A DNA stretch of 64,000 nucleotides from Parcubacteria group bacterium LiPW_15 (GCA_007375645.1 VMER01000003.1:10008-74007); one strand, 5' to 3'. Counted from the first letter of the stretch, positions 5,622 through 46,731 are shown. Translations and numbers: made by a program. Notes: generated from the letters alone by a model not told the origin.

Positions 5622-6426
5622 TATGCCAAGAGTCGACGATGCACTTCAATTCATAATTTCTTGTCTTCGGTCTTCCCCCATGTCTGCTCGGAATTATGGG
5701 TATGACGTATATATCCCAAATGTTTGCAGAACTTACGTTCGGGAAGTTGAACATATTACCGATCAGACTTCGGCAGAGCGACGTGCCCACGAACTTATTG
5801 GCGGTGTTTTTTATGATGCGGCTTGGGAACTTTGCCGCCGAGGCATCCTGCGCCCAAGCGTTCGGGGCAGAAATGAGCAATCGACCGATGACGGATCTGC
5901 AGGCAATGGTTACTCGATAACCACACTCGGCAGATCCTGGCTTGATGAAAATCAGGGCGTTCTTTTTATTCCAACCGAACCTTCGAGAGTAGCGGAGCTC
6001 ATCGGGCGTTTCCGGGGTGATTTCGGTGACGGTTTTTTTCAGAGAGCCCAGGAAGCAGTCAGGTGCTATTCAGCGGGAGCATATCTTGCCTGTTGCGTAA
6101 TGTGTGGAGCAGCAATGGAATCCGTACTTTTACATTTAGCGATTCAGAAAAACGGTGATGAAGTGGCGGTTATGAGAACTTACCGGACTTCAATGGGGAG
6201 GAGTAGAGTCGAGACTATTATTTTACAGGGGGTGCCCGATCACTTAGCGAGAACGTTTCGAAGTTCGACTGACTTATTGAAGTACTGGAGAGACGACGCT
6301 TCGCACGGTGCAGCTTCTGTGATCACAGAGTTCGAGGCATACGAAGCCATTTCGCGTCTCCTCCGTTTTGTTCTATTTGCAGTAGGTCACTTACCGGAGT
6401 TCACGGGTTCTCCTCGGAGAGCGTAA
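5622..6426 (+). CDS. hypothetical protein with a HEPN-like Rx4H motif (possible Abi/toxin component)
   Basis: Start chosen at MPRVDDALQF because the 5482 start overlaps the previous gene; 'YWRDDASHG' fits the HEPN Rx4-6H catalytic motif; cysteine-rich helical region. Confidence 0.35.
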
Positions 6427-8024
6427 GTTCTAACCTCGTTCAACATGTGGAGCCACATGGGATTTGCCACGTCTAAAGCGTGGCTTTTCTCTTTATTAGA
6501 GCCTTCATTGGGAGGTTCTAACCGTCCGATTTTTTGTTTTGATGAAGATGAGACGAGAATCATCGGCAGAAGCGCGGAATCCGTGTCAATGCTTATGTTT
6601 TTGTCCTTTAAGAGGAGGTTCGAACCAAGGGCGGATAAAATTACTTTTCTCGCGTGCTGGCCACGTTCCGTGAAGGCTTCTTTGGCATCGGTTGCGAATT
6701 TGAGCACGTTGTCTGCCGTCTGCAGCCAGCTGTCCACTCTGGCATCGGTGTCGTTCAAAAGCTCGTGCAGTTTTGCTTTTTCTTGATTGATCGTCGATTT
6801 CTTTCTTGCAAACTCTTCCTCGCTTATTTCCCCAGCTGCGCGCATATCTATAAGAGCGTCCAGTTTCCGCACACATGCTTCGTAATTTTTTTGCTGATTG
6901 GAGAGGATCGCATTGCGGTCAGCTGCCTCCCGACCGTTCTCGTTCTGCAACCACTTCATGGCCCAGCCGTGGAATTCTTCCGGTGGCCGGACTTTAGCGA
7001 GTGTGCCGGTGATCTGCTTTTCCATTTCTTTCACTTCTATGCATTTCTGAGTGCACGGACCTTTGCGTTTCGTGCAGTGATAGTAAGTGTAGTGATGAAC
7101 GTTGCCGTTCTTATTTTTCTTTGTCTTATTCTCGGCCGTGACCATGCATCCACACTCACCACACCGGATCATGCCGGTGTAGGCAAAGGAATGCGCTTCT
7201 GGCTTCGGTTTACTGCCACGGCCCAGGAGTACCTGAACGCGATCATATTCATCGCGCGTGATCATCGGCTCGTGCTTGCCCTTGTGCCAGTTGCCCGATC
7301 CGGCCGGCCATTCAAACCATCCGTAGTAGAATGAGTTGTAAAGCACGCGATAAAATCCGCTTCGGGCCAGTTTCTTTAAACCCCACTGATTGACGGCAAT
7401 TTCGTGGACGCGTGGCGCGGTATATGTGCCGCTCAAAATCATATTGAACATTTTTCGGATAATCGGAAACATCTTTGGGTCTTTGCGGATCGTCTTAAAG
7501 CCTTTCATCTTATCCGGCGTGTTCATATAGCCGATCGGAGCAACACCGGGATGCCAGCCCATTTCTACTTTGCGTCTTAAGCCTCGTTTTACATCCACGC
7601 CTTTGTTGTCGTTTTCAAGCTTGGCTTGGCTACACAAAAGGTTTAGTAAAAACTTATCGTTTGGAGAATTCTTAAATGCCTGTCCGGGTGTTCGGATTTC
7701 GAGAAGTTTATTCTGGTCCATAAGGTAGACCAGGTAGCCGGTGTCCACGGAATTACGTGAGAGCCGGTTCGGATGCCACGCAACAATGCCCTCCGCTTCA
7801 CCTTTCTCTATTCGTTTTATCATCGCGTTGAAGATCTCCCGGCCCGGTGCTTTGGCTGAGTAGGATTCTTCGAGACGCTCCACAATCTGAAGCTTTTCCC
7901 GTTTTGCGAGTGCTTCCAATTCGCTCTTTTGCGAGTCAATCGAAAGGACCTGTCTGTCTTCTTGTTCTGAAGATTTTCGAGCGTAGAGGAAGTACTTGAG
8001 TCTTGGTTGTACTTCCTGGTTCAT
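6387..8024 (-). CDS. large serine recombinase (integrase/resolvase family)
   Basis: 545 aa; N-terminal resolvase motif YARKSSEQEDRQVLSIDSQ with a catalytic Ser; recombinase domain followed by a Zn-ribbon (CGECGCM...YYHC) and a coiled coil. Confidence 0.8.
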   Translation of the reverse strand: MNQEVQPRLKYFLYARKSSEQEDRQVLSIDSQKSELEALAKREKLQIVERLEESYSAKAPGREIFNAMIKRIEKGEAEGIVAWHPNRLSRNSVDTGYLVYLMDQNKLLEIRTPGQAFKNSPNDKFLLNLLCSQAKLENDNKGVDVKRGLRRKVEMGWHPGVAPIGYMNTPDKMKGFKTIRKDPKMFPIIRKMFNMILSGTYTAPRVHEIAVNQWGLKKLARSGFYRVLYNSFYYGWFEWPAGSGNWHKGKHEPMITRDEYDRVQVLLGRGSKPKPEAHSFAYTGMIRCGECGCMVTAENKTKKNKNGNVHHYTYYHCTKRKGPCTQKCIEVKEMEKQITGTLAKVRPPEEFHGWAMKWLQNENGREAADRNAILSNQQKNYEACVRKLDALIDMRAAGEISEEEFARKKSTINQEKAKLHELLNDTDARVDSWLQTADNVLKFATDAKEAFTERGQHARKVILSALGSNLLLKDKNISIDTDSALLPMILVSSSSKQKIGRLEPPNEGSNKEKSHALDVANPMWLHMLNEVRTYALRGEPVNSGK

Positions 8025-8025
8025 A

Positions 8026-8889
8026 TTAGTTTTGGAACAAGTCGGTGGTGTTCAGATAGTAAATCAGTTTACCGCCACTTGATATTATGATTCTGGCAAT
8101 CGGGTGCTGCCACGGATCGCCGGTCAGTCCGTCCGGCAGTGAGGCGTTTTTGTCTTCCCATTGCCATTCATTGGCAGCCGGGTTTGCTGCGCCTGGTTTG
8201 CTTGAGATGTATTTAAGCTGGATGTCGGAGCGAAGCATGAATTTTGTGTGTTCCGGGTCTCTGCCGAAATAAGCGAAGGCAATTTGTTCGATTTCAGCTT
8301 TGGTCTTCAGCGGAGTTTCCAGCGATCCGTTACCAGGGCAATTACCTGGCGTGGTAGCGTTGCGTTCTATCGGATAGACAATTCCGATTTCCACGACCTG
8401 ATTCGTTTTTTGCGTTACCTGATATTGATAAACTTCGCAGCGGTCGTTGATGTAATCTGTTTGCTGGAAGATATAGACCGGCCGGTCCCATTCTTCGGGA
8501 TTGTCGGCCGTAAATCCGCCGTCGTTCTGTTTAACGTTGCTTAAGACGGCAAAGTTCGATGGATGATTATTTTGTCCGGTGTATTGCAACTCAAGATTCG
8601 GTTCTCCCATGAACGTCTGAATTGCTTGCTCGGCTTTCACAAGCTCTGTTTGGCTTGGAGGGTTGTCGTTTACAAAAATCCTGCCGTCCGGAGTTTTGCA
8701 CTGATCTGGATAATGCTTAACGATCGGGTAACCGGCCTCAGAGCATTGCTCGAATGTCGTAATTGAGGCTACGTCTGCATTCGTGCCTCCGCGCGGTGCT
8801 TTGTTTCCTAGAAGGTAATAAACCCCGAATCCTGCCCCAAAGACCGCTACAAGGGCGATTACGGTGGTTATTTTGGCTTTGTTTGTCAT
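8026..8889 (-). CDS. secreted or membrane-anchored hypothetical protein
   Basis: 287 aa; N-terminal TM/signal sequence TTVIALVAVFGAGFGVYYLL; immediately downstream of the recombinase. Confidence 0.4.
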   Translation of the reverse strand: MTNKAKITTVIALVAVFGAGFGVYYLLGNKAPRGGTNADVASITTFEQCSEAGYPIVKHYPDQCKTPDGRIFVNDNPPSQTELVKAEQAIQTFMGEPNLELQYTGQNNHPSNFAVLSNVKQNDGGFTADNPEEWDRPVYIFQQTDYINDRCEVYQYQVTQKTNQVVEIGIVYPIERNATTPGNCPGNGSLETPLKTKAEIEQIAFAYFGRDPEHTKFMLRSDIQLKYISSKPGAANPAANEWQWEDKNASLPDGLTGDPWQHPIARIIISSGGKLIYYLNTTDLFQN

Positions 8890-9173
8890 ATGATTGTTTT
8901 CATTAATTATTTAGTCGACCTAAGCACAACATGGTCCTAAGGTCGAAAGAAGTCAAACACTTGATTACTTACATTTTACGCCTTTATTTACAGGTTGGGT
9001 ATCTATTCTTGTGTCGATTTTGTCCTCCTTTTATCCGGTTGTCTTCTCAAAAATCTGCCCAAGTTTCACCCAAGCTTTGCCCAACCCCTATTTTTTAATT
9101 TTTGACGAGCTATCTTGCTTTATTTAAGCTTTATTATTATTTCTTTCTTACTCAATCTTTATTACTAAGTGCT

Positions 9174-9614
9174 TCATGGTGGACCTGGGCCATGATTCTC
9201 TAAGACACCTGACCGTGCTTCATTATGAACCCCGGCAGATTGGAGAAGTCTGGGGTTGAGGCGATACAAAGTTCCGGCCCACCGGCCGCGCTCCGATGTT
9301 CCTGGTCTAGTTTCTATTAGCCCAAGACCGGCAAGTTTCTTTCTAACCCGGCGGCATGTTGATCTGCTGAACCCGAACGAAGCGAACCCGCGCTCCTTGT
9401 CTTCGCGCGTGGTAAACAATCGGTCGGTATGCCAAAACCAGCCGTCTGCATTTGCATAGCGGTTTGAGAGATGGCAGATAACCATGAGAAAATCCCGCTC
9501 GGCGTGCGTGAGCGAATTCTTCAGCTGGTCGTCATCGAAGACCAGGTGAGGAGCTGGAAAGAAATTTAAGCTTTTACCACGTGTTGTCCGGTTCGGTTTG
9601 TTCATATGATTCAC
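9174..9614 (-). CDS. hypothetical phage/plasmid-like DNA-binding protein
   Basis: 146 aa; basic segment with winged-HTH-like character (SRSTCRRVRKKLAGLGLIE); lies in a mobile-element context. Confidence 0.3.
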   Translation of the reverse strand: MNHMNKPNRTTRGKSLNFFPAPHLVFDDDQLKNSLTHAERDFLMVICHLSNRYANADGWFWHTDRLFTTREDKERGFASFGFSRSTCRRVRKKLAGLGLIETRPGTSERGRWAGTLYRLNPRLLQSAGVHNEARSGVLENHGPGPP

Positions 9615-9882
9615 TAAATATTTCAGCTACTTTTTCACTGACGGCTTTTTCGACCAGGACGCCGACTTCGTGGTTAATTGGATGAAAAATATTAATGTTT
9701 TGTCCGGCCACTTTGCGCGTTGGGTACACAAGCCGGTATCCGCCCTCACGTCTGGAGAACACGGCCACCGATCCCATCCAGAATTTACTGTCCAGAACAA
9801 ACGAAACAAACCCAAGGAGGCCGTCCTGGGGTTTAACCGGGTAGAACTGTATTTCGCTAATTGTGGTTGGTGCTGAGGTCAT
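9574..9882 (-). CDS. SpoVG-like protein
   Basis: 102 aa; ISEIQFYPVKPQDGLLGFVSFVLDSKFWMGSVAVFSRREGGYRLVYPTRK...FHPINHEV resembles the SpoVG fold family, which is common on phages. Confidence 0.5.
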   Translation of the reverse strand: MTSAPTTISEIQFYPVKPQDGLLGFVSFVLDSKFWMGSVAVFSRREGGYRLVYPTRKVAGQNINIFHPINHEVGVLVEKAVSEKVAEIFSESYEQTEPDNTW

Positions 9883-10057
9883 GGCTTTTCACTACTTTTT
9901 CTTTGAAATCGTCTATATTCGGCTCACCCATGTAGGTGATCTTGTAGAGCTTGAAAAGATTATTCGCGCGCAAAGCAGCCTCCTCATCGGAGAGCTTCAC
10001 GCCGTAGCGTTTTTCGTAAAGCGTTTTAAATTCTTCGATTGCTTCTTGGGGCAACAT
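9857..10057 (-). CDS. small hypothetical protein
   Basis: 66 aa; overlaps the SpoVG-like gene start in an apparent operon. Confidence 0.25.
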   Translation of the reverse strand: MLPQEAIEEFKTLYEKRYGVKLSDEEAALRANNLFKLYKITYMGEPNIDDFKEKVVKSHDLSTNHN

Positions 10058-10384
10058 AAAAGGCTGGCCCCTGCCGGGAGCTAGCCTTTATCTGTCTAAT
10101 CAAATTCGTCAGTCTAATCGAGGCACCTTAGCCTCAGAGGGAAATTATTTATCAGCAGAGCTAGTTGGAAAACAAAAAACGGGACCACGACTCTTGTCAT
10201 CAAATGCACACGCCGAATGGCAGTGCCGATAACAGTAGTCGTAGTCCCGTCGCGTTTAGACTGAGAATTCAGTCGCCGTCAGACCAACTAACTCTGATGT
10301 ATTTATTTTAGCCGATCCGGAAAAATGCTGCAAGACCCGTTCGCTGTGGACAAGAAATTGTCTGACAAATTCTAATGACAACTT

Positions 10385-10413
10385 TTGCCATTTTTGCCAT
10401 AAAGCGATACAAT
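10385..10413 (+). promoter_or_regulatory. candidate sigma70-type promoter for the HTH-mod-res-NTPase operon
   Basis: TTGCCA, 17-nt spacer, TACAAT; lies ~18 nt upstream of the AAGGAT RBS and the ATG at 10431. Confidence 0.35.
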
Positions 10414-10430
10414 ACCAATAAGGATTTATT

Positions 10431-10631
10431 ATGCCAAACAAACCAGCCGAAAAACTTTTAACCATTGAAGAAGTCGCAGAGATTCTTCGAGTTAGTACCC
10501 GCTCGGTGAACCGCTATATCGAATTGGGAAAACTTAAGGCATCCAAGATTGGTGTATGGCGAATAAAAGAATCTGACCTGAACGCTTTCTTGGAAGATAC
10601 AAGCAATATCAAACCCAAAAAGAAGAAATAA
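10431..10631 (+). CDS. excisionase-family helix-turn-helix DNA-binding protein
   Basis: 66 aa; LLTIEEVAEILRVSTRSVNRYIELGKLKASKIGVWRIKESDLNAFLE matches the excisionase/AlpA-type HTH pattern; ends 4 nt before mod. Confidence 0.6.
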   Translation: MPNKPAEKLLTIEEVAEILRVSTRSVNRYIELGKLKASKIGVWRIKESDLNAFLEDTSNIKPKKKK

Positions 10632-10634
10632 TTT

Positions 10635-12203
10635 ATGCCAACACTAAACTGGATCGGAAAAGAAGCGGTAACAAACCACGACAAAGAGGTTCCTTTTAAA
10701 TTGCTTAAAAAAGTTAAGACCGCTTCGGCTGGTGACAACTCTCAAAATCTAATTATTCATGGTGATAACCTGGAGGCATTGAAAGCTTTGATGCCTTATT
10801 ATGTCGGCCAGGTTAAGTGTATTTATATCGATCCTCCTTACAACACTGGTAACGAAGGCTGGATTTACAACGACAAAGTTAATTCTCCCAAAATTAAGCA
10901 GTGGCTAGGCAAGGTGGTCGGCCGCGAATCAGAAGATCTGACGCGCCACGATAAATGGCTATGCATGATGCATCCTCGCCTAAAACTTCTACGGGACTTG
11001 CTTGCTGAAGATGGTGCAATTTTTGTATCAATCGATGACAACGAACAACACAATTTAAGATCACTGCTTAATGAAATTTTTGAGGAGAAAAACTTTGTTA
11101 CAAATATCATTTGGCAAAAGAAGTACTCACCACAAAATGACGCCAAGTATTTCTCCGACATGCACGACTTCATAGTTGTTTATGCGAAGCATAAGAATAA
11201 AGGAGCAGAAAAGCATGGATGGATAAGAAATTTAATATCCCGAACTGAGCGTCAAAATGCCAGATACAAAAATCCAGATAATGATCCTCGTGGTCCGTGG
11301 AAACCGGCCGATCTTTCAGTAAAAACTTATTCAAAGGCCTATGATTACCCAATCACTACTCCTAGTGGCAGAGTAGTTAATCCTCCCAATGGACGATCGT
11401 GGTCTACGTCGAAAGAAAATTTTGAGGCATGGAGAAATGATAATCGTGTATGGTTCGGAAAGAATGGAAAGAATGTTCCCTCTGTAAAAATATACCTTTC
11501 AGAAGTCCAAGGTGGTACAGTTCCTCTATCCATTTGGTTAAGAGATGAGGTTGGAGATAATCAAGAAGCCAAGCAAGAGATTAAAGAATTATTAGGTACT
11601 GAAAATTTTCCTTTTGATACACCTAAGCCGGTACGTTTAATAAAACGTATTTTGCAGCTTACAACTAATGAAGACTCCTTAGTCATTGATTCCTTTGCCG
11701 GTTCAGGTACTACCGGCCATGCCGTTTTAGATTTGAACAAAGAAGACGGAGGGAATCGTAAATTTATTATGGTTGAAATGGAAGATAAGGTTGCAAAAGA
11801 TATTACAGCCGAGCGAGTTAAGCGTGCAATCAAGAAATACGGTTTTAAAGAAGGTTTTGAGTACTGCGAATTAGACAAGCCCCTTTTTAACGAGCACGGC
11901 CAGATTGAAGATACTTGTGACTTTCGTCAGTTCGCCACTTATATTTACTTCACCGAAACTCAAACCAACATCGATCCGAAGAAAATTGACGAGAATTATA
12001 TCGGTGAACTTGGGACCACTGAGTATTACTTGCTTTATAAGGGCAAGAATAAAAACGATTTGAATAAATCATTTCTAAAGAAAATCAAAAAGACTGAGAA
12101 CAAAAAGGTCATCTATGCGGACCGATGCCTGATTGACGACGAGACGCTTGCCAAGCACAACGTCGCGTTCAAGCAGATCCCTTACGAAGTAAAAGTATAT
12201 TAA
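10635..12203 (+). CDS. mod: Type III restriction-modification system Mod subunit (beta-class N6-adenine DNA methyltransferase)
   Basis: 522 aa; DPPY catalytic motif (IYIDPPYNTGNEGW) lies N-terminal to the AdoMet motif FAGSGTTGHAV, the beta-class order typical of Type III Mod. Confidence 0.85.
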   Translation: MPTLNWIGKEAVTNHDKEVPFKLLKKVKTASAGDNSQNLIIHGDNLEALKALMPYYVGQVKCIYIDPPYNTGNEGWIYNDKVNSPKIKQWLGKVVGRESEDLTRHDKWLCMMHPRLKLLRDLLAEDGAIFVSIDDNEQHNLRSLLNEIFEEKNFVTNIIWQKKYSPQNDAKYFSDMHDFIVVYAKHKNKGAEKHGWIRNLISRTERQNARYKNPDNDPRGPWKPADLSVKTYSKAYDYPITTPSGRVVNPPNGRSWSTSKENFEAWRNDNRVWFGKNGKNVPSVKIYLSEVQGGTVPLSIWLRDEVGDNQEAKQEIKELLGTENFPFDTPKPVRLIKRILQLTTNEDSLVIDSFAGSGTTGHAVLDLNKEDGGNRKFIMVEMEDKVAKDITAERVKRAIKKYGFKEGFEYCELDKPLFNEHGQIEDTCDFRQFATYIYFTETQTNIDPKKIDENYIGELGTTEYYLLYKGKNKNDLNKSFLKKIKKTENKKVIYADRCLIDDETLAKHNVAFKQIPYEVKVY

Positions 12204-12207
12204 AACT

Positions 12208-14475
12208 ATGGAACTCAAACGCTATCAAAAAACTACACTGGAAACGCTCGAGCAGTTCTTGAAGGAATTGCACAAGGCCGGTCTGAAATACGCTTTCATG
12301 GGCATTACCGAGAAGCCCTATCGTGCTGAGGCATTCGGCGAAGTTCCATTTGTATGCATCAAGATACCTACCGGTGGCGGTAAGACTTTGGTTGGTTGCC
12401 ATGCGGTAGAAAAGGTTATGAGCGGAGCCTTGCAGAATAAGCTCGATCGCGGCATCGTGCTGTGGTTTACGCCGTCCGAAGCAATCAAAACTCAGACGCT
12501 AAAGAAGTTTAAAGATCGCAAAGACCCACATCGAAGAGTGCTTGATGAGGCGTTCGATAATAGCGTTAAGATTTTTTCAAACGAAGAAGCTTTATCTATC
12601 CGCAAAGCTGACGTTGCCGATAATCTTTGCATTGTTGTTGCCAGCCTTGAGGCATTCCGCAAAGAGAAGTCTTTGCAAAACAAATATAAAGTCTACCAAG
12701 AGAACGGCGCGCTTTTGGATCATTTTGAACATATTGAGGAACCGGATTTCCTTGAACGAGATAGCGAAGGCACGGTTATAAATTCACTGGCTAACGTGGT
12801 CCGGTTAAGTAATCCGCTAGTGGTAATTGACGAAGGACACAAGACAGCAACTAAGCTTTCTATCGATTTCCTCAAAGACTTAAACCCAAGTTTTATTGTT
12901 GAATACACTGCCACCCCACGAGATAACAGTAATATTCTTGTTGAAATTCATGCTTCTGAACTTAAGGACGAGCAGATGGTAAAGATTCCTATCGTTCTTG
13001 AGAGCGCAGCTCAATGGCAAAATGCTCTGACAAGAGGTATTGAAAAGCGAATAGAGTTGGAAAAGGACGCAAAGAAAATTAAGGGCGAATATATCCGGCC
13101 GATCGCACTTCTCCAAGCACAGCCCAAAAATAAGGACGGCAATACCATCACTGTTGAACACATAAAAGAGTTTTTGATTGAGCGAAAAATCCCAACCGAA
13201 CAAATCGCTATCAAAACTTCAGAAAAGAACGAGCTGGAAGGAGTTGATCTTTTTAGCAGGAGCAGTGATATCCGTTATATCATCACGGTGAATGCTCTGG
13301 CCGAAGGTTGGGATTGTTCTTTTGCTTATGTACTAGTTTCCGTTGCCAACCTTGGTTCAAAGATTGCTGTTGAGCAGATTATCGGACGCATTATCCGTCT
13401 GCCATATGCAAAGAAAAAAGCTAACGAAGACTTTAATAGAAGTTATGTTTTTGCATCAGCCAGGAATTTTAATGAGGCGGCAGAGCAGATTATTTCCGGC
13501 CTGGAAAGCAACGGTTATAGCCGATCAGACATTATCGGGGCCGATAAGAAGGATACCTCTTACGAATTAGAAGCGAAGAAGGCTATCTTAGATACGCTGA
13601 AGGTGCCGATGATGGCCTTGGACGGCGATCAATTAACTTTTGAAGATTTGGTTGGGAGCGACTTCGAGCTTTCAAAACAGGATTATAAATTTGAATTTCA
13701 AATCCATTACGATAACGACGGACGCGCCATTATTGATATCAAGAACGAAGACGAATGGATGCGTGGAAAGCAGATGTTTTTGAAACTTAATTACTCTGAC
13801 AAGAACTTTACAAAGAATGAACTGGTGCAGTGGCTGGATAAGAAGCTACGTTTTCCTCTTTTGGAAAAATCGGACAAAGTCGGTTTCCTCGATAAAGCCA
13901 TTGATTATCAGCTCAAGTCTCACACGCTTTCTGAGCTATCAGTCAATCGTTATGTCTTGGCCGACCGGCTAAGCGAAGTGATTAATGGCATTTTGGAAGA
14001 ATATGCCAAGGAACGCTTCGATTCGCTTTTGCAGAAAAAGAAAATCACTACAGAACCGTTCGACGCTTTCCCGGCCACCATTACTCTCAAACAAGCTATA
14101 CCGCAGGAGTTTAATAGGAATTACTACGAAAAGACAGATAAACTCAACCGCGAAGAGCTTGAGTTCGTCCAGCGTCTCGATCTCGACACACTTTCTAATA
14201 TTAAATATTGGGTTCGCAGCCGTGAGAAGATTGATCCGTTTTACATTCAGGGCTGGAAACGCGGAAAGTTTTATCCAGACTTTGTTGCTGTAACCAAAAA
14301 AGGAAATATTATCGCCCTCGAATGGAAAGGTGCGGATCGCGTAAGCAATGAAGATACTGCTTATAAAGTTAAGATTGGCGAGATTTGGTCGAATCTTGGA
14401 GGCAACAAACTGCACTTCTTCTTGGTGCATACCGGCAACGTAGAAGAAGTTCTAAAAGAAATAAAAGAGCTGTAA
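12208..14475 (+). CDS. res: Type III restriction enzyme Res subunit (SF2 helicase-nuclease)
   Basis: 755 aa; Walker A KIPTGGGKT; DEGH box VVIDEGHK; helicase motifs; directly follows mod after a 4-nt gap. Confidence 0.8.
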   Translation: MELKRYQKTTLETLEQFLKELHKAGLKYAFMGITEKPYRAEAFGEVPFVCIKIPTGGGKTLVGCHAVEKVMSGALQNKLDRGIVLWFTPSEAIKTQTLKKFKDRKDPHRRVLDEAFDNSVKIFSNEEALSIRKADVADNLCIVVASLEAFRKEKSLQNKYKVYQENGALLDHFEHIEEPDFLERDSEGTVINSLANVVRLSNPLVVIDEGHKTATKLSIDFLKDLNPSFIVEYTATPRDNSNILVEIHASELKDEQMVKIPIVLESAAQWQNALTRGIEKRIELEKDAKKIKGEYIRPIALLQAQPKNKDGNTITVEHIKEFLIERKIPTEQIAIKTSEKNELEGVDLFSRSSDIRYIITVNALAEGWDCSFAYVLVSVANLGSKIAVEQIIGRIIRLPYAKKKANEDFNRSYVFASARNFNEAAEQIISGLESNGYSRSDIIGADKKDTSYELEAKKAILDTLKVPMMALDGDQLTFEDLVGSDFELSKQDYKFEFQIHYDNDGRAIIDIKNEDEWMRGKQMFLKLNYSDKNFTKNELVQWLDKKLRFPLLEKSDKVGFLDKAIDYQLKSHTLSELSVNRYVLADRLSEVINGILEEYAKERFDSLLQKKKITTEPFDAFPATITLKQAIPQEFNRNYYEKTDKLNREELEFVQRLDLDTLSNIKYWVRSREKIDPFYIQGWKRGKFYPDFVAVTKKGNIIALEWKGADRVSNEDTAYKVKIGEIWSNLGGNKLHFFLVHTGNVEEVLKEIKEL

Positions 14476-14489
14476 ATTATGGAATATTT

Positions 14490-17400
14490 ATGGCAAAACG
14501 ACTTACCAGAAATGAAGATGCGCCGTTCTACTTCGAGAAATTATATGCAGGGATTTGTTTTTTAGACCTTCTCACAAGCACATCCTCTTTAGAGAAAATA
14601 GAAATTAAACCTGATAGGAAACACGGTTCCGTTAGAAGAATTGAAGATCTAACCAAATATCATACAGATGATAGTGTTGAGATTGTTCAAATTAAACACA
14701 CACTCAATCAAGGTACCAAATGGGGTTTCGCTGATCTTTGGGTAAGTAATATACGTCCAAAAACATCTTCTCGTCGCAAAGAAGGAACGAATATATTTAA
14801 GTTTTTAAAAAGTTGGCGCACCCATAAAGATAATGGGAAAAATGTTTCTTTAATTATAGCTAGCAATAAAATACCTACTAACGATCTAAATAGCCTGTTA
14901 AGAGATATCGGGAGAGTCAATAAAAGGAAGCTGTCTTGGAGAAAATTCCAAACTAAATATTCCACTGAGCTAAAAAATATTGAAGCAAATTGTAGTGAAG
15001 AACCATTTAGCAATAAAAAAGAATTAAAAGACTTCATTGGGGCGTTTCGCTTCCAAAAACTTCCCGATATAGAATCTTTAGAAAAGAGATTAGTAGTAAA
15101 ACTTAAAAAGCAAGGCGTTATCGATAATGACCGTGTAAATGCGTTCATAAATAGAGTCACAAAAACTTTTGTATCGGACCAAGTAGAAATATTCTCAACT
15201 CATGTTGCTAGTTTAATCGATCGATTAAAAACGGGTTTGATTCAGGAGATTATCGCGCCGCCAAATTACATTGAACGTCCTGAGTTAGAAAAGAAGATTA
15301 TTAAGGCAATAGAGATTAAGAAAAAGAATGGAGGGTTTGTTCTTTTATTTGCCCCTTCTGGCTCTGGGAAAACCGTATTACTTTCTAGACTAGCAGAGAA
15401 AAATCCGGATTTCTTTCCCTATTTTTGTCGCATTCGTCCTTTTGAAACTACAAAAAATCGGGCTGGCCATTCAAATACAAACAGACTAAAAAGCTCATGG
15501 TTTAAGGCAGACATCATTCAAAGATGTTTTGAATTTGGTTTATTGCCAATGTCTATAGGCGTAAACGATAATGAGGACTTTATTGATAAAACATTTGATG
15601 AGGCTTTAAAAAAATTGAGCGAAAAGGCACTTCAGAGACCAGGGAAAAAAATTGTCATCATCGTCGACGCATTAGATCAGGTGGAGACTGATAAATATAA
15701 GGAACGGTCTGTACTAGATGCAATACCATCGGTTAATTACCCCGGAGTAATTTTCTTATTAAGTACTTGGGGAGAAAAGTACTTACCTCAATCAATTAAA
15801 AATTTATCAGCGAATATAAAAAAAGAAATCAGTACTGATCTGTATTTTAGTGAAATAGAAACAAAGCAATATCTCGAGAAAGCAAATATCAGTTTGTCCC
15901 AAGACCAGGCAACAATAATTAAAAACAAAACCGGAGGATTAGCTATCTCACTATTTTACCTCAGCAAAAAGGTACAAGGTGGAGGGAGTCTCGATGAAGT
16001 AATTGGTTCGCAAGAACAATACTCTGAAGTTTTTGATTGGTATAAACCTATCTGGAATAGTTTTAATAATCGCGAGAAGGAATGTTTGGGATATTTATGT
16101 TTCCACTTTTCGCCGGTACCAAGGCAGGATTTACGCAACATAGTTTCCAAATTTAATACGGCAAGCTTCAATAATCTCATAGAAAAAATTGAACATTTTT
16201 TGGTTGCGAACAGCAACAGTCTTGAACCATATCATGATAGCTTTAGAAGATTTGTGGTGAGTAGGTTGTCGAAAGATAAGGACGCTTTTCACCAACGGAT
16301 CGCCAAATATTATTCTCAAAACACCCGGTTATTATATGGTCGCAAGTATACAATCAAACATTTAGAAGCAGTAGGCTTGTCGCAGCTGTCTGTCAGAAAC
16401 ACATATGCCGTGCTTCACAAAAATCAGTTTTTCGGAGAAATATTACGATCAAATATTGATAATCAAACCAAGGTTGAGGTTGGTAAGAGTTTTGTAAATT
16501 ATTTTTTTCAGACAAATAATATTGAACACTTGGTAAAGTATGCGGTTACTACCAGCGATATTTACCCGACAGTTCATGATGAGGATGTTTATTCAAAAGC
16601 TAAAATCGCAACCGATAAACTTCTGAAAGAAGTCGAAGAAGAATTATTACTCCCCAAAGGTGATCAGCCCTGGCTACGTCAAGAATGGGTCTTTAAGCGT
16701 CTGGCCATAGGGAATATTCTCGCCAAGAAAAAAAGCAAGAACTGTTTAACTCTAGCTCATCGTCTTATAGACGACAGCCTTTTCAGGATTTCTTTAGACA
16801 GAGAATTGCTCTGGGGAAATGATAATCGCTCTCAAGATCGTTTTTGGGATAATGCCGAGGAGCTTGCAACCGCATTGGTTAATATTGGTCGGTATAAACG
16901 AAGCTTAACTTTCCTAAAGAAAGAGATAGGTTTCAAGAAAAATAAATCCATTCTTCAAGGATTTAAGGGTAACTATATAACGAGAATTCATCTTCAGCAC
17001 CTTAAAACAAATATCGATGAAGCTTTAACAGCGATTCGTCGCGCGCCCAAAATAGAACGCCTTTTAACCTATTTGCAGATGGAAAAAGAAGGTATCAATG
17101 TGCCTAACAAGAAAGACTTTAAAACATTATTAGCAGATGAGAAGCTCGAGAAGTATTTATATAACGATAGCTATATCAACCAGTATCTGGATTTAAGTGA
17201 GGCTTTATTTGTGCATAACGTTAGGGGTCGAAAAGAAAGAATAATAAGACTATTAGACAAGGTAAAATTGGAAATCCCTTATCATGATCACGGGTACTCT
17301 TATTGGGGAACTCATGGAAACAACCGAGATACTTTCATGCGTTGGACGGCGTTACGGTCTTTGGTGGACAGAAGTTTCAAGTTGGGAGAGTTTTATTCAC

Positions 17401-19187
17401 AAGAATTAAAAAATAAATTTTCTAAATCAAATGATAATTCCGAGAGGGAGAATCCTGAATTCGTAAAGGTTTTGTCCATAGGGCAAGAATTAACGAAATC
17501 CAGATTACTTCTGAGAGCAAAAAAGATTATATGGCAATCCTTCAAAAAATTATTTGATAATAGTTTGAAATTATATAAAGAAAAAATTGATCAGATAAAC
17601 GCACAGCGTGAATCACATTATTCTGCGGACATACAAAAAAATTTATATCCCTACAGCCAAGATTTACACAACTTAATTGATGACAATATTTGGGAAATAA
17701 ACTCGCTGTTCCCAAATAAATTATTAAATTCTCTAGATAGATTGGAAAAAATATTCGGTCATGATTATGTTAGCAACAAGGCAGAACTTTTAGAAAGCCT
17801 CGTTTCTTTAACTACGCCAAAAACTTCTACATTAAAAGAAAAAATAGAAGGCTATTTGAACCGGGCTTTAGAACTGCGACAAAAAGAAGAGCTTGATAAT
17901 TTAAATAAGAGCGACAATTTAAAAAAACTGGCTGTTCTAGCTGCTCATAAAGGTTTCCCGGAAATGGCGGATGATATATTTGAGAAAAATCTTAAATATT
18001 CTCGCGGTCTCTGGAATAAAGGCGATCTAAGGATAACTAATCTTATTGATTCGGCGCGCACTCAAAAAAAAGAACATTTCGAACCAATCTTAAAATTAAT
18101 TGATCGTGTTTCTGATGTTATAGAAGGATCGTGGTATTGGAAACTTGATTTTTTGGAATCAGCCGCCTATGCCGATTATTCTCTGGCCCTGGATTATCTT
18201 TCTTCTTTTGTGATGAAAAGTGAAGTAAATCAAAATCAGGCTTTAGAGCGAATAATATCAACTTATATAAAACGTAATCCGTATAGTAAGTTCTCCGAAA
18301 TCCTCCCCCTTCTAAGATTGATGGATGTTAAAGAAGAAAACTCTTCTGATTATTTTGAATATATTACTAAAGCCTATCTTGCCTCCATAAAGTGGTCCTT
18401 ATTCAACAAAGATTACACAACAGCTAAAAGCCTGGCGCGGCAATACTATTTAATTCTTAAAACGGATGTTGAACCATCGCATAGAATGAATTTATTGAGG
18501 GACTTTTCTGCATCGTTAGCTGATCCGGAGTTAAAAACAATTCTAAGAGAGGTTGGCGTATATTTAAAAAAGTTGGAGCAAGAAGGATATCGAGCGGCTG
18601 AGAAAAGCAACTCTGAATTTAAAGTTAGTTATAAAGACTTAAATATTAAACAATTAAAAACTCTGGCCCAAAAAGGCCAGATTGAAGCCCTACAGAAAAA
18701 AATAAATGAGTACGCTAAAACGGAAGGTTATTTTACATACAGACTGATTACTGAATTAGTCCCTTCGCTTAGCGATAACGATCTTCAAAAAATTAGAAAA
18801 TGGGGATCAGAAAATAAAGTGAATGTGGACAGCCCCGAATTATTTGTGGCTATTTTGAAAAAGGCAGTCAGGATTAATAATAAGCGACTGATAAATAAAA
18901 CGCGATCAGAAATAATCCAATATTTGAAATCATCTGAACGTGATTACGGGTTAAGTGAGATTATAAGAGAGCTTGATAAAATAGACTTTCCGAAAAAGAA
19001 GGAGTTGTTAAGGAGGCTGCTATTATTGGGCATTTGCAGATTAACGGGAAGTGGTTACTACCTACCACAGTTTTTTACTTACACCTCCGAAAGCATTGAT
19101 TCATATTTTCCAGAATTAAAAGGATACGCTTTTTCAAGCTGGAAAAATATCGTAAATAAATCCATGCGCCTTTCTCTATCACAATGA
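14490..19187 (+). CDS. large STAND-like P-loop NTPase with an N-terminal nuclease-like domain and C-terminal helical repeats
   Basis: 1565 aa counted from the ATG at 14490, 15 nt after the res stop; Walker A LLFAPSGSGKTVL; Walker B KKIVIIVDALDQ; N-terminal 'TDDSVEIVQIKH' is a possible D...QxK REase-like motif; ~1000-aa alpha-helical TPR-like tail; very AT-rich. Confidence 0.6.
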   Translation: MAKRLTRNEDAPFYFEKLYAGICFLDLLTSTSSLEKIEIKPDRKHGSVRRIEDLTKYHTDDSVEIVQIKHTLNQGTKWGFADLWVSNIRPKTSSRRKEGTNIFKFLKSWRTHKDNGKNVSLIIASNKIPTNDLNSLLRDIGRVNKRKLSWRKFQTKYSTELKNIEANCSEEPFSNKKELKDFIGAFRFQKLPDIESLEKRLVVKLKKQGVIDNDRVNAFINRVTKTFVSDQVEIFSTHVASLIDRLKTGLIQEIIAPPNYIERPELEKKIIKAIEIKKKNGGFVLLFAPSGSGKTVLLSRLAEKNPDFFPYFCRIRPFETTKNRAGHSNTNRLKSSWFKADIIQRCFEFGLLPMSIGVNDNEDFIDKTFDEALKKLSEKALQRPGKKIVIIVDALDQVETDKYKERSVLDAIPSVNYPGVIFLLSTWGEKYLPQSIKNLSANIKKEISTDLYFSEIETKQYLEKANISLSQDQATIIKNKTGGLAISLFYLSKKVQGGGSLDEVIGSQEQYSEVFDWYKPIWNSFNNREKECLGYLCFHFSPVPRQDLRNIVSKFNTASFNNLIEKIEHFLVANSNSLEPYHDSFRRFVVSRLSKDKDAFHQRIAKYYSQNTRLLYGRKYTIKHLEAVGLSQLSVRNTYAVLHKNQFFGEILRSNIDNQTKVEVGKSFVNYFFQTNNIEHLVKYAVTTSDIYPTVHDEDVYSKAKIATDKLLKEVEEELLLPKGDQPWLRQEWVFKRLAIGNILAKKKSKNCLTLAHRLIDDSLFRISLDRELLWGNDNRSQDRFWDNAEELATALVNIGRYKRSLTFLKKEIGFKKNKSILQGFKGNYITRIHLQHLKTNIDEALTAIRRAPKIERLLTYLQMEKEGINVPNKKDFKTLLADEKLEKYLYNDSYINQYLDLSEALFVHNVRGRKERIIRLLDKVKLEIPYHDHGYSYWGTHGNNRDTFMRWTALRSLVDRSFKLGEFYSQELKNKFSKSNDNSERENPEFVKVLSIGQELTKSRLLLRAKKIIWQSFKKLFDNSLKLYKEKIDQINAQRESHYSADIQKNLYPYSQDLHNLIDDNIWEINSLFPNKLLNSLDRLEKIFGHDYVSNKAELLESLVSLTTPKTSTLKEKIEGYLNRALELRQKEELDNLNKSDNLKKLAVLAAHKGFPEMADDIFEKNLKYSRGLWNKGDLRITNLIDSARTQKKEHFEPILKLIDRVSDVIEGSWYWKLDFLESAAYADYSLALDYLSSFVMKSEVNQNQALERIISTYIKRNPYSKFSEILPLLRLMDVKEENSSDYFEYITKAYLASIKWSLFNKDYTTAKSLARQYYLILKTDVEPSHRMNLLRDFSASLADPELKTILREVGVYLKKLEQEGYRAAEKSNSEFKVSYKDLNIKQLKTLAQKGQIEALQKKINEYAKTEGYFTYRLITELVPSLSDNDLQKIRKWGSENKVNVDSPELFVAILKKAVRINNKRLINKTRSEIIQYLKSSERDYGLSEIIRELDKIDFPKKKELLRRLLLLGICRLTGSGYYLPQFFTYTSESIDSYFPELKGYAFSSWKNIVNKSMRLSLSQ

Positions 19188-20680
19188 ATACACTAGAATT
19201 TCTTTCAACTTATTTAAAATCACCAATCATTGCATATCGCAATAAATCTTTATTGTGCTTATTTGAAAATTCTAAACGTGATCAAAGAACAATAAACCAA
19301 TTAGGGCTAAATCTAAATTCAGATAACCTGGATATTGTTTTGAACAGTCTCCGGATCATATATTCCATTAGTCTTCTAGGAAATCCTAAGTTACAAACAA
19401 TTAATGGAAAAATCGCTAAGCTCGGATTGCAGACAAATCACTTCACCATTGCATGTCTATGCAGAGATATTTTGGATGAAATTGGTAATAAGGTAGCATC
19501 CAAAGCAAAATCTATTACTAAAATAATTACACCTGAAATAATTGAGCCAGTTGATGAAGAAATGTTCTTTGATAATTGTGATTACTCTCTTGAGTATTCC
19601 TTAGGGGCTAAAGATTATAAATATGAGCTGTCCCATATTTGCAGGACTTTTAGATATGATTGCAAGAAAGCGGCTAAGCAAGTATTCGCCAATATGAGAA
19701 TACTTGGGTATAGAAAAAAAGTTCAATATTGGAAAGAGCGGCCATCACGCTGGCAGCATGATTTCGAGGGTAATCGATATGAAACCAGGCTAAATTATTT
19801 TGCTAGACATGCAATTCAAATGTTTTTAATGTGGTGCGTCCAAAACTTATCAACTACAGAAAATGATTGGTTAGAACTTCTAACAAGCCAACGAAAATGT
19901 GATGCTTCTTTGCCAAAATTAAGCATACAAGAAAGACCGCATTTCGTACGATTTACAGATTTAGAAATAAACACGGAGAAATGGATAAAGGGCAGAATTA
20001 AAAATCGTGATGCCTATGAGCTTTTTGATCCGAAAGCAAAATGGTTTCCGCTATACGAAAGCACTGACTTCAAATATGAAGATAAAGCATTTAATAGGCA
20101 CATAACCACCTGTTTTATTAAACCTCCAACATTTAAAATTTCAAAGAAACTTGAATTTTCTACACCAAATTACAGCTGCCGAAATTCCTACATAAATGAA
20201 CTGCCTATAAAGGCAAGGCAGAATGGTAGGTTATATTTGGACGATTCTGGTAATCGACACGATGAATTAAAAGACAAGTTACTTCCTTCATACGGGATTG
20301 TTTCTGAGGACTTTGATGATTGCGTTAAACTTTTTCCCGCCCCAGAAATAATAGAGCATTTCAAGTTATCACAAAGAAAAAATACGTTAAGTTATTATAA
20401 AGGGTCAGAGCTGGTTGCTTATTGTGTTAATTGGCAGGATGGTTATTACCGTAATGTAGGACGACAAGGAGAAGATAAGTTTGAGCTTGCTAACCACGGT
20501 CATTTATTGATGGTAAAGACTAAGTATATTAAAAAGTATTTAGCCGATAAAAATTTGAGGTTGTTAGTAATGGGCAATGTTTGGAAAAGAAAAGTAGATA
20601 AATGGTCCCATGAGGGTGATTACAGTAATAAAAAAACCTCAAAACATAAGTGGTTATCTTTTGAGATAATTAAATTTTAA
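19184..20680 (+). CDS. hypothetical protein translationally coupled to the STAND NTPase
   Basis: 498 aa; its ATG overlaps the NTPase stop (ATGA); no recognisable motif. Confidence 0.5.
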   Translation: MNTLEFLSTYLKSPIIAYRNKSLLCLFENSKRDQRTINQLGLNLNSDNLDIVLNSLRIIYSISLLGNPKLQTINGKIAKLGLQTNHFTIACLCRDILDEIGNKVASKAKSITKIITPEIIEPVDEEMFFDNCDYSLEYSLGAKDYKYELSHICRTFRYDCKKAAKQVFANMRILGYRKKVQYWKERPSRWQHDFEGNRYETRLNYFARHAIQMFLMWCVQNLSTTENDWLELLTSQRKCDASLPKLSIQERPHFVRFTDLEINTEKWIKGRIKNRDAYELFDPKAKWFPLYESTDFKYEDKAFNRHITTCFIKPPTFKISKKLEFSTPNYSCRNSYINELPIKARQNGRLYLDDSGNRHDELKDKLLPSYGIVSEDFDDCVKLFPAPEIIEHFKLSQRKNTLSYYKGSELVAYCVNWQDGYYRNVGRQGEDKFELANHGHLLMVKTKYIKKYLADKNLRLLVMGNVWKRKVDKWSHEGDYSNKKTSKHKWLSFEIIKF

Positions 20681-20751
20681 TTAATCCAATTGAACGACGA
20701 TTCGTGACGTAGGTGCGACAGAGCGTGAAGTAGTTGATATCTGCATGACCA

Positions 20752-21072
20752 ATGTCAACAAAAATGCCAAAACAGTTGATATTAATATTATGCAAAGAAT
20801 ACATAAAATATTTAAAAGATAATCCGCAGGGCTATTGGTTCAAGGCGCGACTCTACGGTTGGGGCTGGGTGCCGGCGAAATGGCAGGGGTGGCTTGTTGT
20901 GGCTATTGGCGTAGCTATTTTTATTGCCGGTATTTATGTTGGAGATACCGATGACGCACCAGGTGCAGCTCTCTTGGGTTTTCTACTAATGATTGCGCTT
21001 ATATTCACCTTTGGTTATTGGAAAGGAGAAAAACCACGCTGGCAGTGGGGATCGCCTAAAAATAAGGAATAA
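20752..21072 (+). CDS. small membrane protein
   Basis: 106 aa with two TM helices and a W-rich loop; C-terminal motif DDAPGAALLGFLL shared with the ORF at 24136. Confidence 0.35.
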   Translation: MSTKMPKQLILILCKEYIKYLKDNPQGYWFKARLYGWGWVPAKWQGWLVVAIGVAIFIAGIYVGDTDDAPGAALLGFLLMIALIFTFGYWKGEKPRWQWGSPKNKE

Positions 21073-45254: not shown

Positions 45255-45277
45255 ATTGGTTCTAAAAAATAATTTTG

Positions 45278-45348
45278 TGGACCTACGGGGAGTCGAACCC
45301 CGACCTGTTCCATGCCATGGAACCGTTCTACCGCTATACTATAGGCCC
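45278..45348 (-). tRNA. tRNA-Ala (anticodon GGC)
   Basis: Minus-strand sequence GGGCCTATAGTATAGCGGTAGAACGGTTCCATGGCATGGAACAGGTCGGGGTTCGACTCCCCGTAGGTCCA; G3:U70 identity pair; anticodon loop AUGGCAU; T-loop TTCGACT; no CCA encoded; the D-stem is non-canonical. Confidence 0.7.
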
Positions 45349-45451
45349 AAGTGAGGATCTAAAACGGAAGTGCGGAGCAATTACGTTTTTTCCGAGCGAT
45401 GGGCATATATCGATCCTTTAAGATATAGGCCCTTATTCTTTTATCTATTCA

Positions 45452-45760
45452 TTATATGGGATGAACTCCACGCTTGTGAAGTGCATCTGCTGTTTTCATA
45501 TCCGGAAACAGAACCTTAGAGATAACGACGTCCCGCAAATGATAATTATGGATGGCCTCTCCGATTTTAATCGGGAATGGATCTTTTTTGAGCAAATGTG
45601 CTTCGTGCCCGCCGACTTTCAGGATTATTTCGCTCCCGTTATTTTCATATTCAAACTCATTCCCATCAGCCTTCAAAATATTGACGTAAAATCCAATCTC
45701 TTTATCTATCTTTTCCGACTCCTCTTTAAAATCTTCTTCCCTCCACAATTCCTTACTCAT
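45452..45760 (-). CDS. hypothetical protein
   Basis: 102-aa ORF. Confidence 0.35.
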   Translation of the reverse strand: MSKELWREEDFKEESEKIDKEIGFYVNILKADGNEFEYENNGSEIILKVGGHEAHLLKKDPFPIKIGEAIHNYHLRDVVISKVLFPDMKTADALHKRGVHPI

Positions 45761-45830
45761 TTGAGTGATTCTAAACCAAACAATATAAATTGTAAAATCT
45801 CCCCGGGTATTGTATATTCAACTAGAAAAA

Positions 45831-45905
45831 GCCCTCGTAGTTCAATGGATAGAACTGCTCACTCCTAACGAGCCGATCGAGGTTCGATTCCTCGCGAGGG
45901 CACCA
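45831..45905 (+). tRNA. tRNA-Arg (anticodon CCT)
   Basis: GCCCTCGTAGTTCAATGGATAGAACTGCTCACTCCTAACGAGCCGATCGAGGTTCGATTCCTCGCGAGGGCACCA forms a cloverleaf; anticodon loop CUCCUAA; CCA is encoded. Confidence 0.85.
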
Positions 45906-45911
45906 AACAAA

Positions 45912-45945
45912 AAAACTGGTCACTTGCCGGCCAGTTTTTTGTTTG
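45912..45945. terminator. bidirectional hairpin terminator after tRNA-Arg
   Basis: AAAAAAACTGGTCACTTGCCGGCCAGTTTTTTG. Confidence 0.4.
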
Positions 45946-45953
45946 CGTGTTTC

Positions 45954-46066
45954 GAGCGAGGAATCGAACAGCGAAAGGGGTCGGGAAACCGCGCTCGGTT
46001 TCCCGTGTTGGAAATTATTCAAAACCGAGGGTTTTGAAAAGCGAAGCGCGCGAGCTTCCTCGCGAG
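45954..46066. repeat. copy 2 of the ~115-nt structured repeat element; its termini duplicate or invert the tRNA-Arg 3' end
   Basis: Terminal stem GCGAGGAA/TTCCTCGC; hairpins GGGAAACCG-CGCT-CGGTTTCCC and CAAAACC-GAG-GGTTTTG; the 3' end TTCCTCGCGAGGGCAC repeats tRNA-Arg 45888..45903. Confidence 0.5.
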
Positions 46067-46077
46067 GGCACAAATAT

Positions 46078-46106
46078 AAAAACAGGACCTATCGGGTTCT
46101 GTTTTT
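46078..46106. terminator. bidirectional hairpin terminator
   Basis: AAAAACAGGACC-TATC-GGGTTCTGTTTTT. Confidence 0.45.
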
Positions 46107-46216
46107 ATATTTCGTCTTTATTGGAGGAACCGAACAGTTAGAAAAAGAACTCATTTGCCAAAACCCAACATAGCTGGCATAATAGGAACCGGTTCAAATT
46201 TCTTAACGAGGAGGAC

Positions 46217-46531: not shown

Positions 46532-46644
46532 CCAACCGCTCGCTCTTCTCGCTCTTCGCCCTTCGGCTTCGGCCGGAGGGCTTCCTTTTTATTTGGTCTC
46601 AAAGTAAAATCAGCAGAGGAAGGAGTGTTCGTCCCGGATAAAGC

Positions 46645-46731
46645 GGTGGGGTGGCTGAGTGGTCTAAGGCGCCACACTCGAAATGTGGTGTACCCGAAAG
46701 GGTACCGTGAGTTCAAATCTCACCCCCACCG
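46645..46731 (+). tRNA. tRNA-Ser (anticodon CGA)
   Basis: Class II tRNA with a long variable arm (TGTACCCGAAAGGGTACC); anticodon loop CUCGAAA; T-loop TTCAAAT; discriminator G; no CCA encoded. Confidence 0.85.

Follow-up and report, generated by a model that had tools for sequence, protein, structure and literature searches.

A rare, divergent split Avs1/Avs3-like receptor adjoins a canonical Type III restriction-modification system on a serine-recombinase element of a Parcubacteria group bacterium

We analysed a 64,000-nucleotide (nt) stretch of the genome of Parcubacteria group bacterium LiPW_15 (GCA_007375645.1 VMER01000003.1:10008-74007), hereafter the window, in which five genes place a Type III restriction-modification (R-M) system directly ahead of two proteins of 1565 and 498 amino acids (aa) that the genome record annotates as hypothetical (TSC59610.1 and TSC59611.1). 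A sequence-only reading made earlier had taken these genes for one composite, possibly undescribed defence system, in which a Type III methyltransferase (Mod) and restriction subunit (Res) were joined to a STAND-like NTPase and a novel 498-aa partner. The analysis led us elsewhere: the last two genes encode a rare, divergent, split Avs1/Avs3-like receptor that adjoins a canonical Type III R-M system, and with a probability of roughly three in four these are two independent anti-phage systems, arranged head to tail on one mobile element. The genes of the cluster are as follows.

10431-10631, + strand: HTH_17/excisionase-family gene, 66 aa
10635-12203, + strand: mod, Type III methyltransferase, 522 aa
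12208-14475, + strand: res, Type III restriction subunit, 755 aa
14490-19187, + strand, from the in-frame ATG: gene of the large Avs-like subunit, 1565 aa
19184-20680, + strand: gene of the small subunit, 498 aa

All five open reading frames (ORFs) lie on one strand with intergenic gaps of at most 14 nt, namely 3 nt between the HTH gene and mod, 4 nt between mod and res, and 14 nt between res and the large-subunit gene, and the ATG of the 498-aa gene is placed inside the TGA of the 1565-aa gene, the overlap reading caATGAat. The sequence-only reading was right about the same-strand packing, the mod-res gap and the ATGA overlap, and its distances of 4 nt ahead of mod and 15 nt behind res are corrected here to 3 and 14 nt. 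Because Mod and Res gave strong PADLOC scores and both downstream proteins have full-length homologues (to 35-41% identity), the calls are, as judged by homology, true genes and not chance ORFs. The block is compositionally distinct, with a G+C content of 0.34-0.43 at 10-21 kb against ~0.47-0.52 in its flanks. The best promoter-like match begins at the very position from which the cluster had first been drawn.

10385-10413, + strand: tentative sigma-70-like match upstream of the HTH gene, TTGCCA-17-TACAAT, 10 of 12 positions

Promoter-like matches in the region were not above chance (23 seen versus 31.9 expected after shuffling), and the promoter and terminator scan as a whole remained at or below the shuffle expectation. 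Given the 14-nt gap behind res, in which no terminator-like site was seen, and the position of the best promoter-like site at 10385, the five tightly packed genes are probably co-transcribed in the window's element, and co-transcription is the sole link between the R-M system and the Avs-like pair that can be supported.

The identities first assigned to the three leading genes were confirmed with Pfam, PADLOC and NCBIfam. Mod matched the PADLOC model MTase_III over aa 1-521 of 522 (E = 1.1e-193) and Pfam N6_N4_Mtase (E = 3.2e-42), and its translation contains the motifs DPPY and FAGSGTT. Res matched PADLOC REase_III (E = 8.9e-89), Pfam ResIII (E = 5.6e-13) and, in its C-terminal region, the NCBIfam BPTD_3080 restriction endonuclease; with a Walker A motif (PTGGGKT), a DEGH box (VIDEGH) and a C-terminal PD-ExK motif (YPDF...LEWKG), it is predicted to be a superfamily 2 (SF2) helicase with a C-terminal PD-ExK nuclease. 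Both marks of a Type III system were found, a Mod with DPPY and S-adenosylmethionine (AdoMet) motifs and a helicase/nuclease Res adjoining mod, and the two proteins are, by these motifs, a complete canonical system by themselves. The 66-aa protein (Pfam HTH_17, E = 1.5e-16; TIGR01764, E = 6.5e-10) is probably a regulator of the cargo operon.

The large protein is an Avs-type receptor, consisting of a Cap4-type nuclease, a STAND NTPase and ~900 residues of helical repeats, which correspond to three segments of its gene.

14490-15250, + strand: N-terminal Cap4-type PD-(D/E)xK nuclease effector, aa 1 to ~250
15251-16440, + strand: STAND NTPase module with nucleotide-binding, helical and winged-helix parts; Walker A at aa 289-295, Walker B at aa 388-396
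16441-19187, + strand: ~900-aa helical-repeat (TPR-like) sensor arm, delimited by hhalign to a fused (single-chain) family described below and by TPR matches

The motifs on which the sequence-only reading had relied, Walker A (APSGSGKT), Walker B (IVIIVDALD) and D...QxK (TDDSVEIVQIKH), were all found in the translation, and their key residues were invariant in 29 homologues (D53, Q67 and K69; G291, G293, K294 and T295; D393 and D396). The STAND family NPHP3_N of Pfam was matched weakly by all 29 family members and NACHT by 11 of the 29, and the closest NCBIfam model for the large protein was Avs1b, with 38.8 bits (E = 1.6e-10; cut-off 1500) in the NTPase region only. TPR matches were located in the arm region of the fused family, and weak TPR matches in two members of the large-protein family; PDB sequences searched with the large-protein family returned P-loop or ARM/TPR noise only. 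An effector domain, a STAND NTPase and a large repeat-type sensor, which together characterize Avs proteins in the broad sense, are all present, and the proposed Avs/NLR-like architecture, a STAND-like NTPase with an N-terminal nuclease and a long helical C-terminal part, was upheld.

The 498-aa protein gave no match at E <= 0.01 in Pfam, PADLOC, NCBIfam or PHROGs. Its AlphaFold2 (AF2) model (pLDDT 86, pTM 0.84) predicted N-terminal ARM/HEAT-like helices, a helical middle part and a beta-rich C-terminal domain, and a Foldseek search of this model against the PDB returned SeAvs3 as the sole significant match (E = 2.4e-13, probability 1.00, query-normalised TM score 0.61-0.63), the next match having an E-value of 0.06; the predicted fold is SeAvs3-like, as befits a C-terminal sensor region. 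A faint, position-consistent match to the NCBIfam model Avs3a was observed between aa 384-486 and model positions 1969-2067 of 2083 (11 bits, E = 0.039). Searches of PDB sequences with the 498-aa family gave P-loop or ARM/TPR noise only and no SeAvs3 (8DGC), which was likewise missed by single fused homologues; the link to Avs3 is therefore structural and not sequence-based. A profile hidden Markov model of the family, run against 1.84 billion representatives, recovered 11 proteins only, among them P0071 (2058 aa), which was matched at residues 1563-2037 (E = 8e-13; hhalign 98.1%) and belongs to a family of ~2030-aa single-chain proteins with a DUF4297/Cap4 domain and an Avs1b-like NTPase. By hhalign, residues 57-1551 of the large subunit were colinear with positions 42-1487 of this fused family (probability 100%, E = 1e-43), and residues 3-473 of the small subunit aligned with positions 1532-2012 (probability 98.6%, E = 9e-16). 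Together the two window proteins amount to 2063 aa, compared with 2028 aa in SeAvs3 and ~2030-2058 aa in the fused relatives. Because the small protein matches the SeAvs3 fold and the two proteins tile the fused family colinearly, the supposed novel partner can be read as the sensor region from the C-terminal end of an Avs1/Avs3-like protein, detached and encoded separately.

A competing view would make the 498-aa protein a separate regulator, such as an inhibitor or "antitoxin" that keeps the nuclease-STAND protein inactive, or else an additional effector outside the sensor. It is a distinct polypeptide in every lineage, and ARM/HEAT-like repeats, which it has at its N-terminus, bind proteins generically; we nevertheless find this view improbable, as the protein runs colinear with the last ~480 residues of the fused homologues, its whole model matches SeAvs3 only, the four profile collections named above yielded no catalytic-domain match, and the beta-rich C-terminal domain of Avs2/Avs3 contacts the phage terminase (PMC13601566). 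Three further proteins, all distantly related to the small subunit, were noticed during these searches: P0072 (495 aa) represents a second stand-alone family of ~495 aa, P0073 (709 aa) showed a faint Avs3a C-terminal match, and P0074 (1777 aa) has its Avs1b-like NTPase at the very start, no effector domain having been detected ahead of it. Such receptors may thus be split or truncated in other ways as well.

Look-ups and scans recovered 27 loci (numbered L001 and onwards), which represent 12 sequence lineages at 35-99% identity. Both families of the pair are rare, with 28 and 20 clusters in a collection of 5.8 billion proteins, and occur on the same contigs; the hosts are bacteria of the candidate phyla radiation (CPR) and Ignavibacteria. 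In every locus with enough DNA, across the 12 lineages, the large and small genes were adjacent. A Type III Mod-Res lay upstream of the pair only in L007 (NTPase 88% identity) and L017 (99%), both copies of the window's element, and the other 11 pair-bearing lineages were without Type III R-M. What precedes the pair there varied: a MutH-like nuclease and a C5-methyltransferase in L001 (Falkowbacteria), two D12 adenine methyltransferases and a 461-aa protein in the L020 group (Nomurabacteria, Saccharibacteria, Nealsonbacteria), HTH_17 alone in L010, and unrelated genes in L003, L005, L008, L014, L015 and L024. DNA similarity of the window to L008 and L010 begins at 14503 and 14505, within 15 nt of the large-gene start codon. 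The surroundings have the make-up of defence islands and mobile elements, with genes for Type III, Type II and Type I R-M, SIR2_2, HEPN, NERD and serine recombinases nearby. The 1565-aa and 498-aa genes are a conserved autonomous pair, independent of R-M.

The gene that leads the cluster can be exchanged as well. In L017, whose pair is 97-99% identical to the window's, the HTH gene is replaced by a gene for a 477-aa AAA_14/DUF4143 ATPase (L017:4248-5681, + strand) that ends 3 nt before mod, so the leader gene of the cargo operon is modular, and in L010 an HTH_17 gene (9794-9979), 65% identical to the window's, stands directly upstream of the pair in a locus without R-M. The two cases weaken the HTH gene's candidacy as an R-M-specific gene.

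These neighbourhoods also bear on the composite first proposed, in which the Type III enzymes Mod and Res would work with the STAND NTPase and its 498-aa neighbour as one defence machine, for instance with R-M activity feeding the sensor or the reverse. The narrow gaps (3, 4 and 14 nt), the missing terminator-like site between res and the NTPase gene, the arrangement retained in L007 and L017, and the other R-M types that adjoin the pair in L001 and the L020 group all speak for it. Against it, the adjacency is confined to one element lineage (at least 88% identity) among lineages otherwise devoid of Type III R-M, L017 has a different gene at the head of the "operon", breaks in homology coincide with the limits of genes, stand-alone genes for single-chain homologues are widespread, and Mod and Res are complete and canonical unaided. 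Conservation of the res-NTPase adjacency, by which the proposal was to be judged, essentially fails beyond the two close element copies, and we regard a composite system as distinctly improbable.

Several features of the related loci deserve mention. In L020, the gene at 8385-9911 (- strand) encodes a LexA DNA-binding domain and an S24 peptidase fused to a D12 adenine methyltransferase, and it adjoins the second D12 methyltransferase (7325-8383, - strand) and the 461-aa protein (5951-7336, + strand), which had no Pfam match and is possibly a nuclease. Such a joining of LexA to a methyltransferase is unusual; through it, control of R-M might be tied to the SOS response or to self-cleavage. In L010, a HEPN-domain gene (16203-16646) overlaps the end of the small-subunit gene and is followed by two serine recombinases. 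Pairs ~68-70% identical to the window's were found in L011, L012 and L013, metagenome-assembled genomes assigned to Nomurabacteria, Saccharibacteria and Nealsonbacteria, and the Ignavibacteria copies were at 44-55%; this distribution suggests cross-phylum transfer, or binning problems.

The genes ride on a ~15.5-kb serine-recombinase integrative element with swappable cargo, which extends over ~6447-22001 and has the following parts outside the five-gene cluster.

6387-8024, - strand: large serine recombinase (Pfam Resolvase, E = 1e-19; Recombinase; Zn_ribbon_recom; SHOCT)
8026-10057, - strand: backbone genes for 287-aa, 146-aa, 102-aa SpoVG-like and 66-aa proteins
20690-21872, + strand: window-only 1.2-kb insertion between the pair and the right end
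21902-22001, no strand: conserved right end, 95% identical to L017 15742-15841, after which the flanks diverge

Window positions 6450-20683 aligned with L007 at 85% nt identity over 14.3 kb, and the left flanks differed. A common left end at ~6447-6450 (GAGCCACATGGGATT...) was found in the window, L007 and L017, and a common right end at 22001 (...CACAGCTCGGAGCA) in the window and L017, with a GGAGC motif at both element ends. The left end of L017 abuts the 3' end of a tRNA-Asn(GTT) gene (L017:52-126), and the window and L007 copies are situated in other flanks. The recombinase is 96-97% identical in L007 and L017 and 76% identical in the CPR elements L020 and L022; its ORF reads ~60 nt beyond the shared left end into flanking DNA, hence its C-terminal tail varies among insertions. 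The backbone set, including the SpoVG-like 102-aa protein (9574-9882, - strand; weak SpoVG match, E = 1.7e-6), is kept in L007, L017, L011-L013, L019, L020 and L022, and in L011-L013, L019, L020 and L022 the same backbone, the pair and the right end after the pair are combined with other R-M cargo. Immediately after the pair, the right end is 82% identical in L011, L012, L019 and L020. The insertion carries genes for two small membrane proteins, one of 106 aa that is DUF998-like (20752-21072) and one of 169 aa with DUF2975 (21130-21639; Pfam, E = 5e-29), and it is absent in L007 and L017, whose sequence passes from the end of the pair to window position 21873/21902. Beyond 22 kb the G+C content climbs to 0.52.

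Outside the element, positions 23517-24915 encode an aminoglycoside 2''-adenylyltransferase-like protein (Pfam Aminoglyc_resit, E = 5.6e-10) and a "Bact_hydrolase" protein (E = 2e-49), followed by the housekeeping GTPase RsgA at 25004-26095. Farther on, three tRNA genes were located at 45277-46732, Ala-GGC (- strand), Arg-CCT and Ser-CGA, with a local G+C content of 0.40 at 45-46 kb.

The mobile setting raises the alternative that the pair works for the element itself, for instance in addiction or exclusion, and not for host immunity. The pair is the terminal cargo of the window-type element, and large serine recombinases of different families repeatedly adjoin it (the window, L003, L005 and L010, those of the last three being unrelated to the window's). 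Such elements commonly carry defence systems, however, and L008, L014, L015 and L001 are without a full-length recombinase within 10 kb. Since the architecture also matches that of Avs proteins with experimentally proven anti-phage activity (PMC13601566, PMC12803255), we consider a service to the element alone very unlikely.

The break between the two subunits recurred throughout. In all lineages the junction consists of an ATGA overlap or of a gap of at most 9 nt (+1, +4, +9), and the relative frame of the two genes varies; because it differs among lineages, the split is old and real and does not reflect a frameshift, an assembly error or recoding. Programmed frameshifting over the junction is ruled out by the same observation. 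An artefact or decay, by frameshift, sequencing error or pseudogenisation of a single-chain Avs, would account for the summed length of the two ORFs, which equals that of the fused relatives, and is effectively refuted by the junction survey, in which the same break recurred in 12 lineages and independent assemblies down to 39% identity, with an intact start codon in each lineage and both ORFs clearly conserved.

The receptor architecture, the colinear split, the conservation of the pair, its independence of R-M and the mobility of the element are results of computation. For the way in which two such subunits might act, SeAvs3, Avs1 and SeAvs7 provide the analogies from which a subunit complex, its trigger, oligomerisation and DNA cleavage may be pictured. 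In SeAvs3, binding of the large terminase of the phage by the TPR and C-terminal regions leads to a tetramer, whose Cap4 nuclease then degrades double-stranded DNA (dsDNA), and Avs2 and Avs3 have a common beta-strand-rich "C-terminal sensor" that binds the terminase ATPase (PMC13601566). SeAvs7 follows the same scheme with a capsid protein as its trigger (PMC12803255). In a system of two independent defences, translational coupling through the ATGA overlap would lead to both subunits being made together, and the 1565-aa and 498-aa proteins would assemble into one sensor to which a conserved phage protein could bind, the large terminase being the best guess (roughly 40-50%). Binding of the trigger would cause ATP-dependent oligomerisation of the STAND domains, and the oligomer would bring the Cap4 nuclease domains into their active form, so that DNA would be cut and the infection aborted. 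The Type III R-M system would form a separate first barrier, neither system needing the other.

Several points weigh against this picture. The association of the two subunits is proposed by analogy, and the trigger is suggested by the resemblance to the SeAvs3 fold and by an NTPase distantly similar to that of Avs1b. In sequence the pair has next to nothing in common with Avs3 (small subunit 11 bits, large subunit no match), and sensors of similar fold can recognise different proteins. Because the 14-nt gap is too small for a promoter outside res, expression of the pair may depend on the R-M operon, and there may be functional cross-talk between the two. In addition, R-M genes of three different types adjoin the pair in three lineages, and this recurrent abutment may be more than a defence-island coincidence. 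A bolder interpretation, tentative and on balance unlikely, is that of a naturally two-subunit Avs receptor whose free C-terminal sensor polypeptide acts in trans and is conserved across CPR phyla and Ignavibacteria, and which here has been slaved to a Type III R-M operon so as to be co-regulated on purpose. If true, an in-trans sensor could be exchanged, be titrated by phage decoys or serve as a dissociable switch, and it would provide a handle on the modularity of Avs/NLR sensors and represent a way of defence typical of CPR bacteria with their small genomes.

Under the reading of two independent systems, no new kind of defence system is present, and the apparent R-M/STAND "fusion" is a packaging effect. 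What is gained is that two "hypothetical proteins" of a CPR bacterium become a recognisable immune receptor, the supposed partner being the receptor's own detached end. Published mentions of split Avs sensors have not been followed by studies of them, and a family whose break is constant in 12 divergent lineages, with translational coupling across it, offers a ready system for asking whether an Avs/NLR sensor can be supplied in trans; it also suits the question of how sensor and NTPase communicate. A third question is whether terminase sensing reaches the phages that infect CPR bacteria, about whose antiviral repertoire little is known. A further outcome is the description of a small serine-recombinase element that travels between CPR phyla, its Avs cargo constant and its R-M slot open to exchange.

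With regard to known systems, the absence of BREX and DISARM components, noted at the outset, was confirmed by PADLOC, in which none of the seven proteins scanned matched any BREX model (PglZ, BrxC and PglX being the marks of BREX) or any DISARM model (DrmA, DrmB and DrmC). MADS (mad1-mad8) was approached by generic matches only, to mad1 (E = 2e-9, through the HTH), to mad8 (E = 8.6e-5, through the P-loop) and to NCBIfam MADS1 (23.9 bits; cut-off 80), and other mad genes were not found at the locus; BREX, DISARM and MADS were ruled out as identities by missing components or such sub-cut-off matches. The resemblance to a CBASS Cap4 effector is restricted to the nuclease domain, no SAVED domain or cyclase being found. 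The R-M part follows the EcoP15I/EcoP1I type in having a beta-class N6-adenine methyltransferase Mod followed by an SF2 helicase and PD-ExK Res, and differs from it in its shorter Res (755 aa against model lengths of ~870-990) and in the small HTH gene ahead of mod.

Among STAND receptors, SeAvs7 is a Cap4-STAND-TPR sensor of the major capsid protein whose active tetramer cleaves dsDNA (PMC12803255). Like the window receptor, it joins a Cap4 effector to a STAND NTPase and a TPR sensor, and it differs in being a single chain with another sensor and trigger and an EF-Tu scaffold; no specific similarity was detected. By sequence, the closest NTPase is that of Avs1b, which the window protein matched with E = 1.6e-10 and the fused relatives with E = 1e-26 to 1e-40. 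In its canonical form Avs1b begins with a trypsin-like protease and is partnered by a metallo-beta-lactamase (MBL) nuclease, Avs1a (PMC12799240), whereas the effector of the window protein is a fused Cap4 nuclease with neither an MBL gene nor an Upx neighbour; with 38.8 of 1500 bits, a Cap4-type N-terminus and no MBL-fold gene at the locus, the protein falls outside NCBIfam Avs1b (NF041810). For Avs1, a structure similar to that of Avs3 is predicted, terminase sensing is reported, and so are variants with a split sensor, among them a "split-TPR variant of Avs1" (Evans et al. 2026, PMC13601566).

The closest relatives over the whole length are the ~2030-aa single-chain Cap4(DUF4297)-STAND proteins (P0071, P0075-P0125), for instance an "ATP-binding protein" of Gloeocapsa sp. 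BRSZ, which are homologous to the pair throughout, have the same type of effector and NTPase, and go unnamed in the sources; they consist of one polypeptide instead of two, at ~17-25% identity. SeAvs3 of Salmonella enterica (PDB 8DGC, AVAST type 3) shares the order of a Cap4-type nuclease, a STAND NTPase, a helical/TPR arm and a beta-rich C-terminal sensor, and it is encoded by one gene in place of two, in Enterobacteria, whereas the hosts of the pair are CPR bacteria and Ignavibacteria. The NCBIfam model Avs3a (NF041816, ~2080 aa, cut-off 2800 bits) was not reached, with 11 bits for the 498-aa protein and no match for the 1565-aa protein. The window pair is below the curated cut-offs of both Avs1b and Avs3a, yet it shares their architecture and, in its C-terminal part, the predicted fold of SeAvs3.

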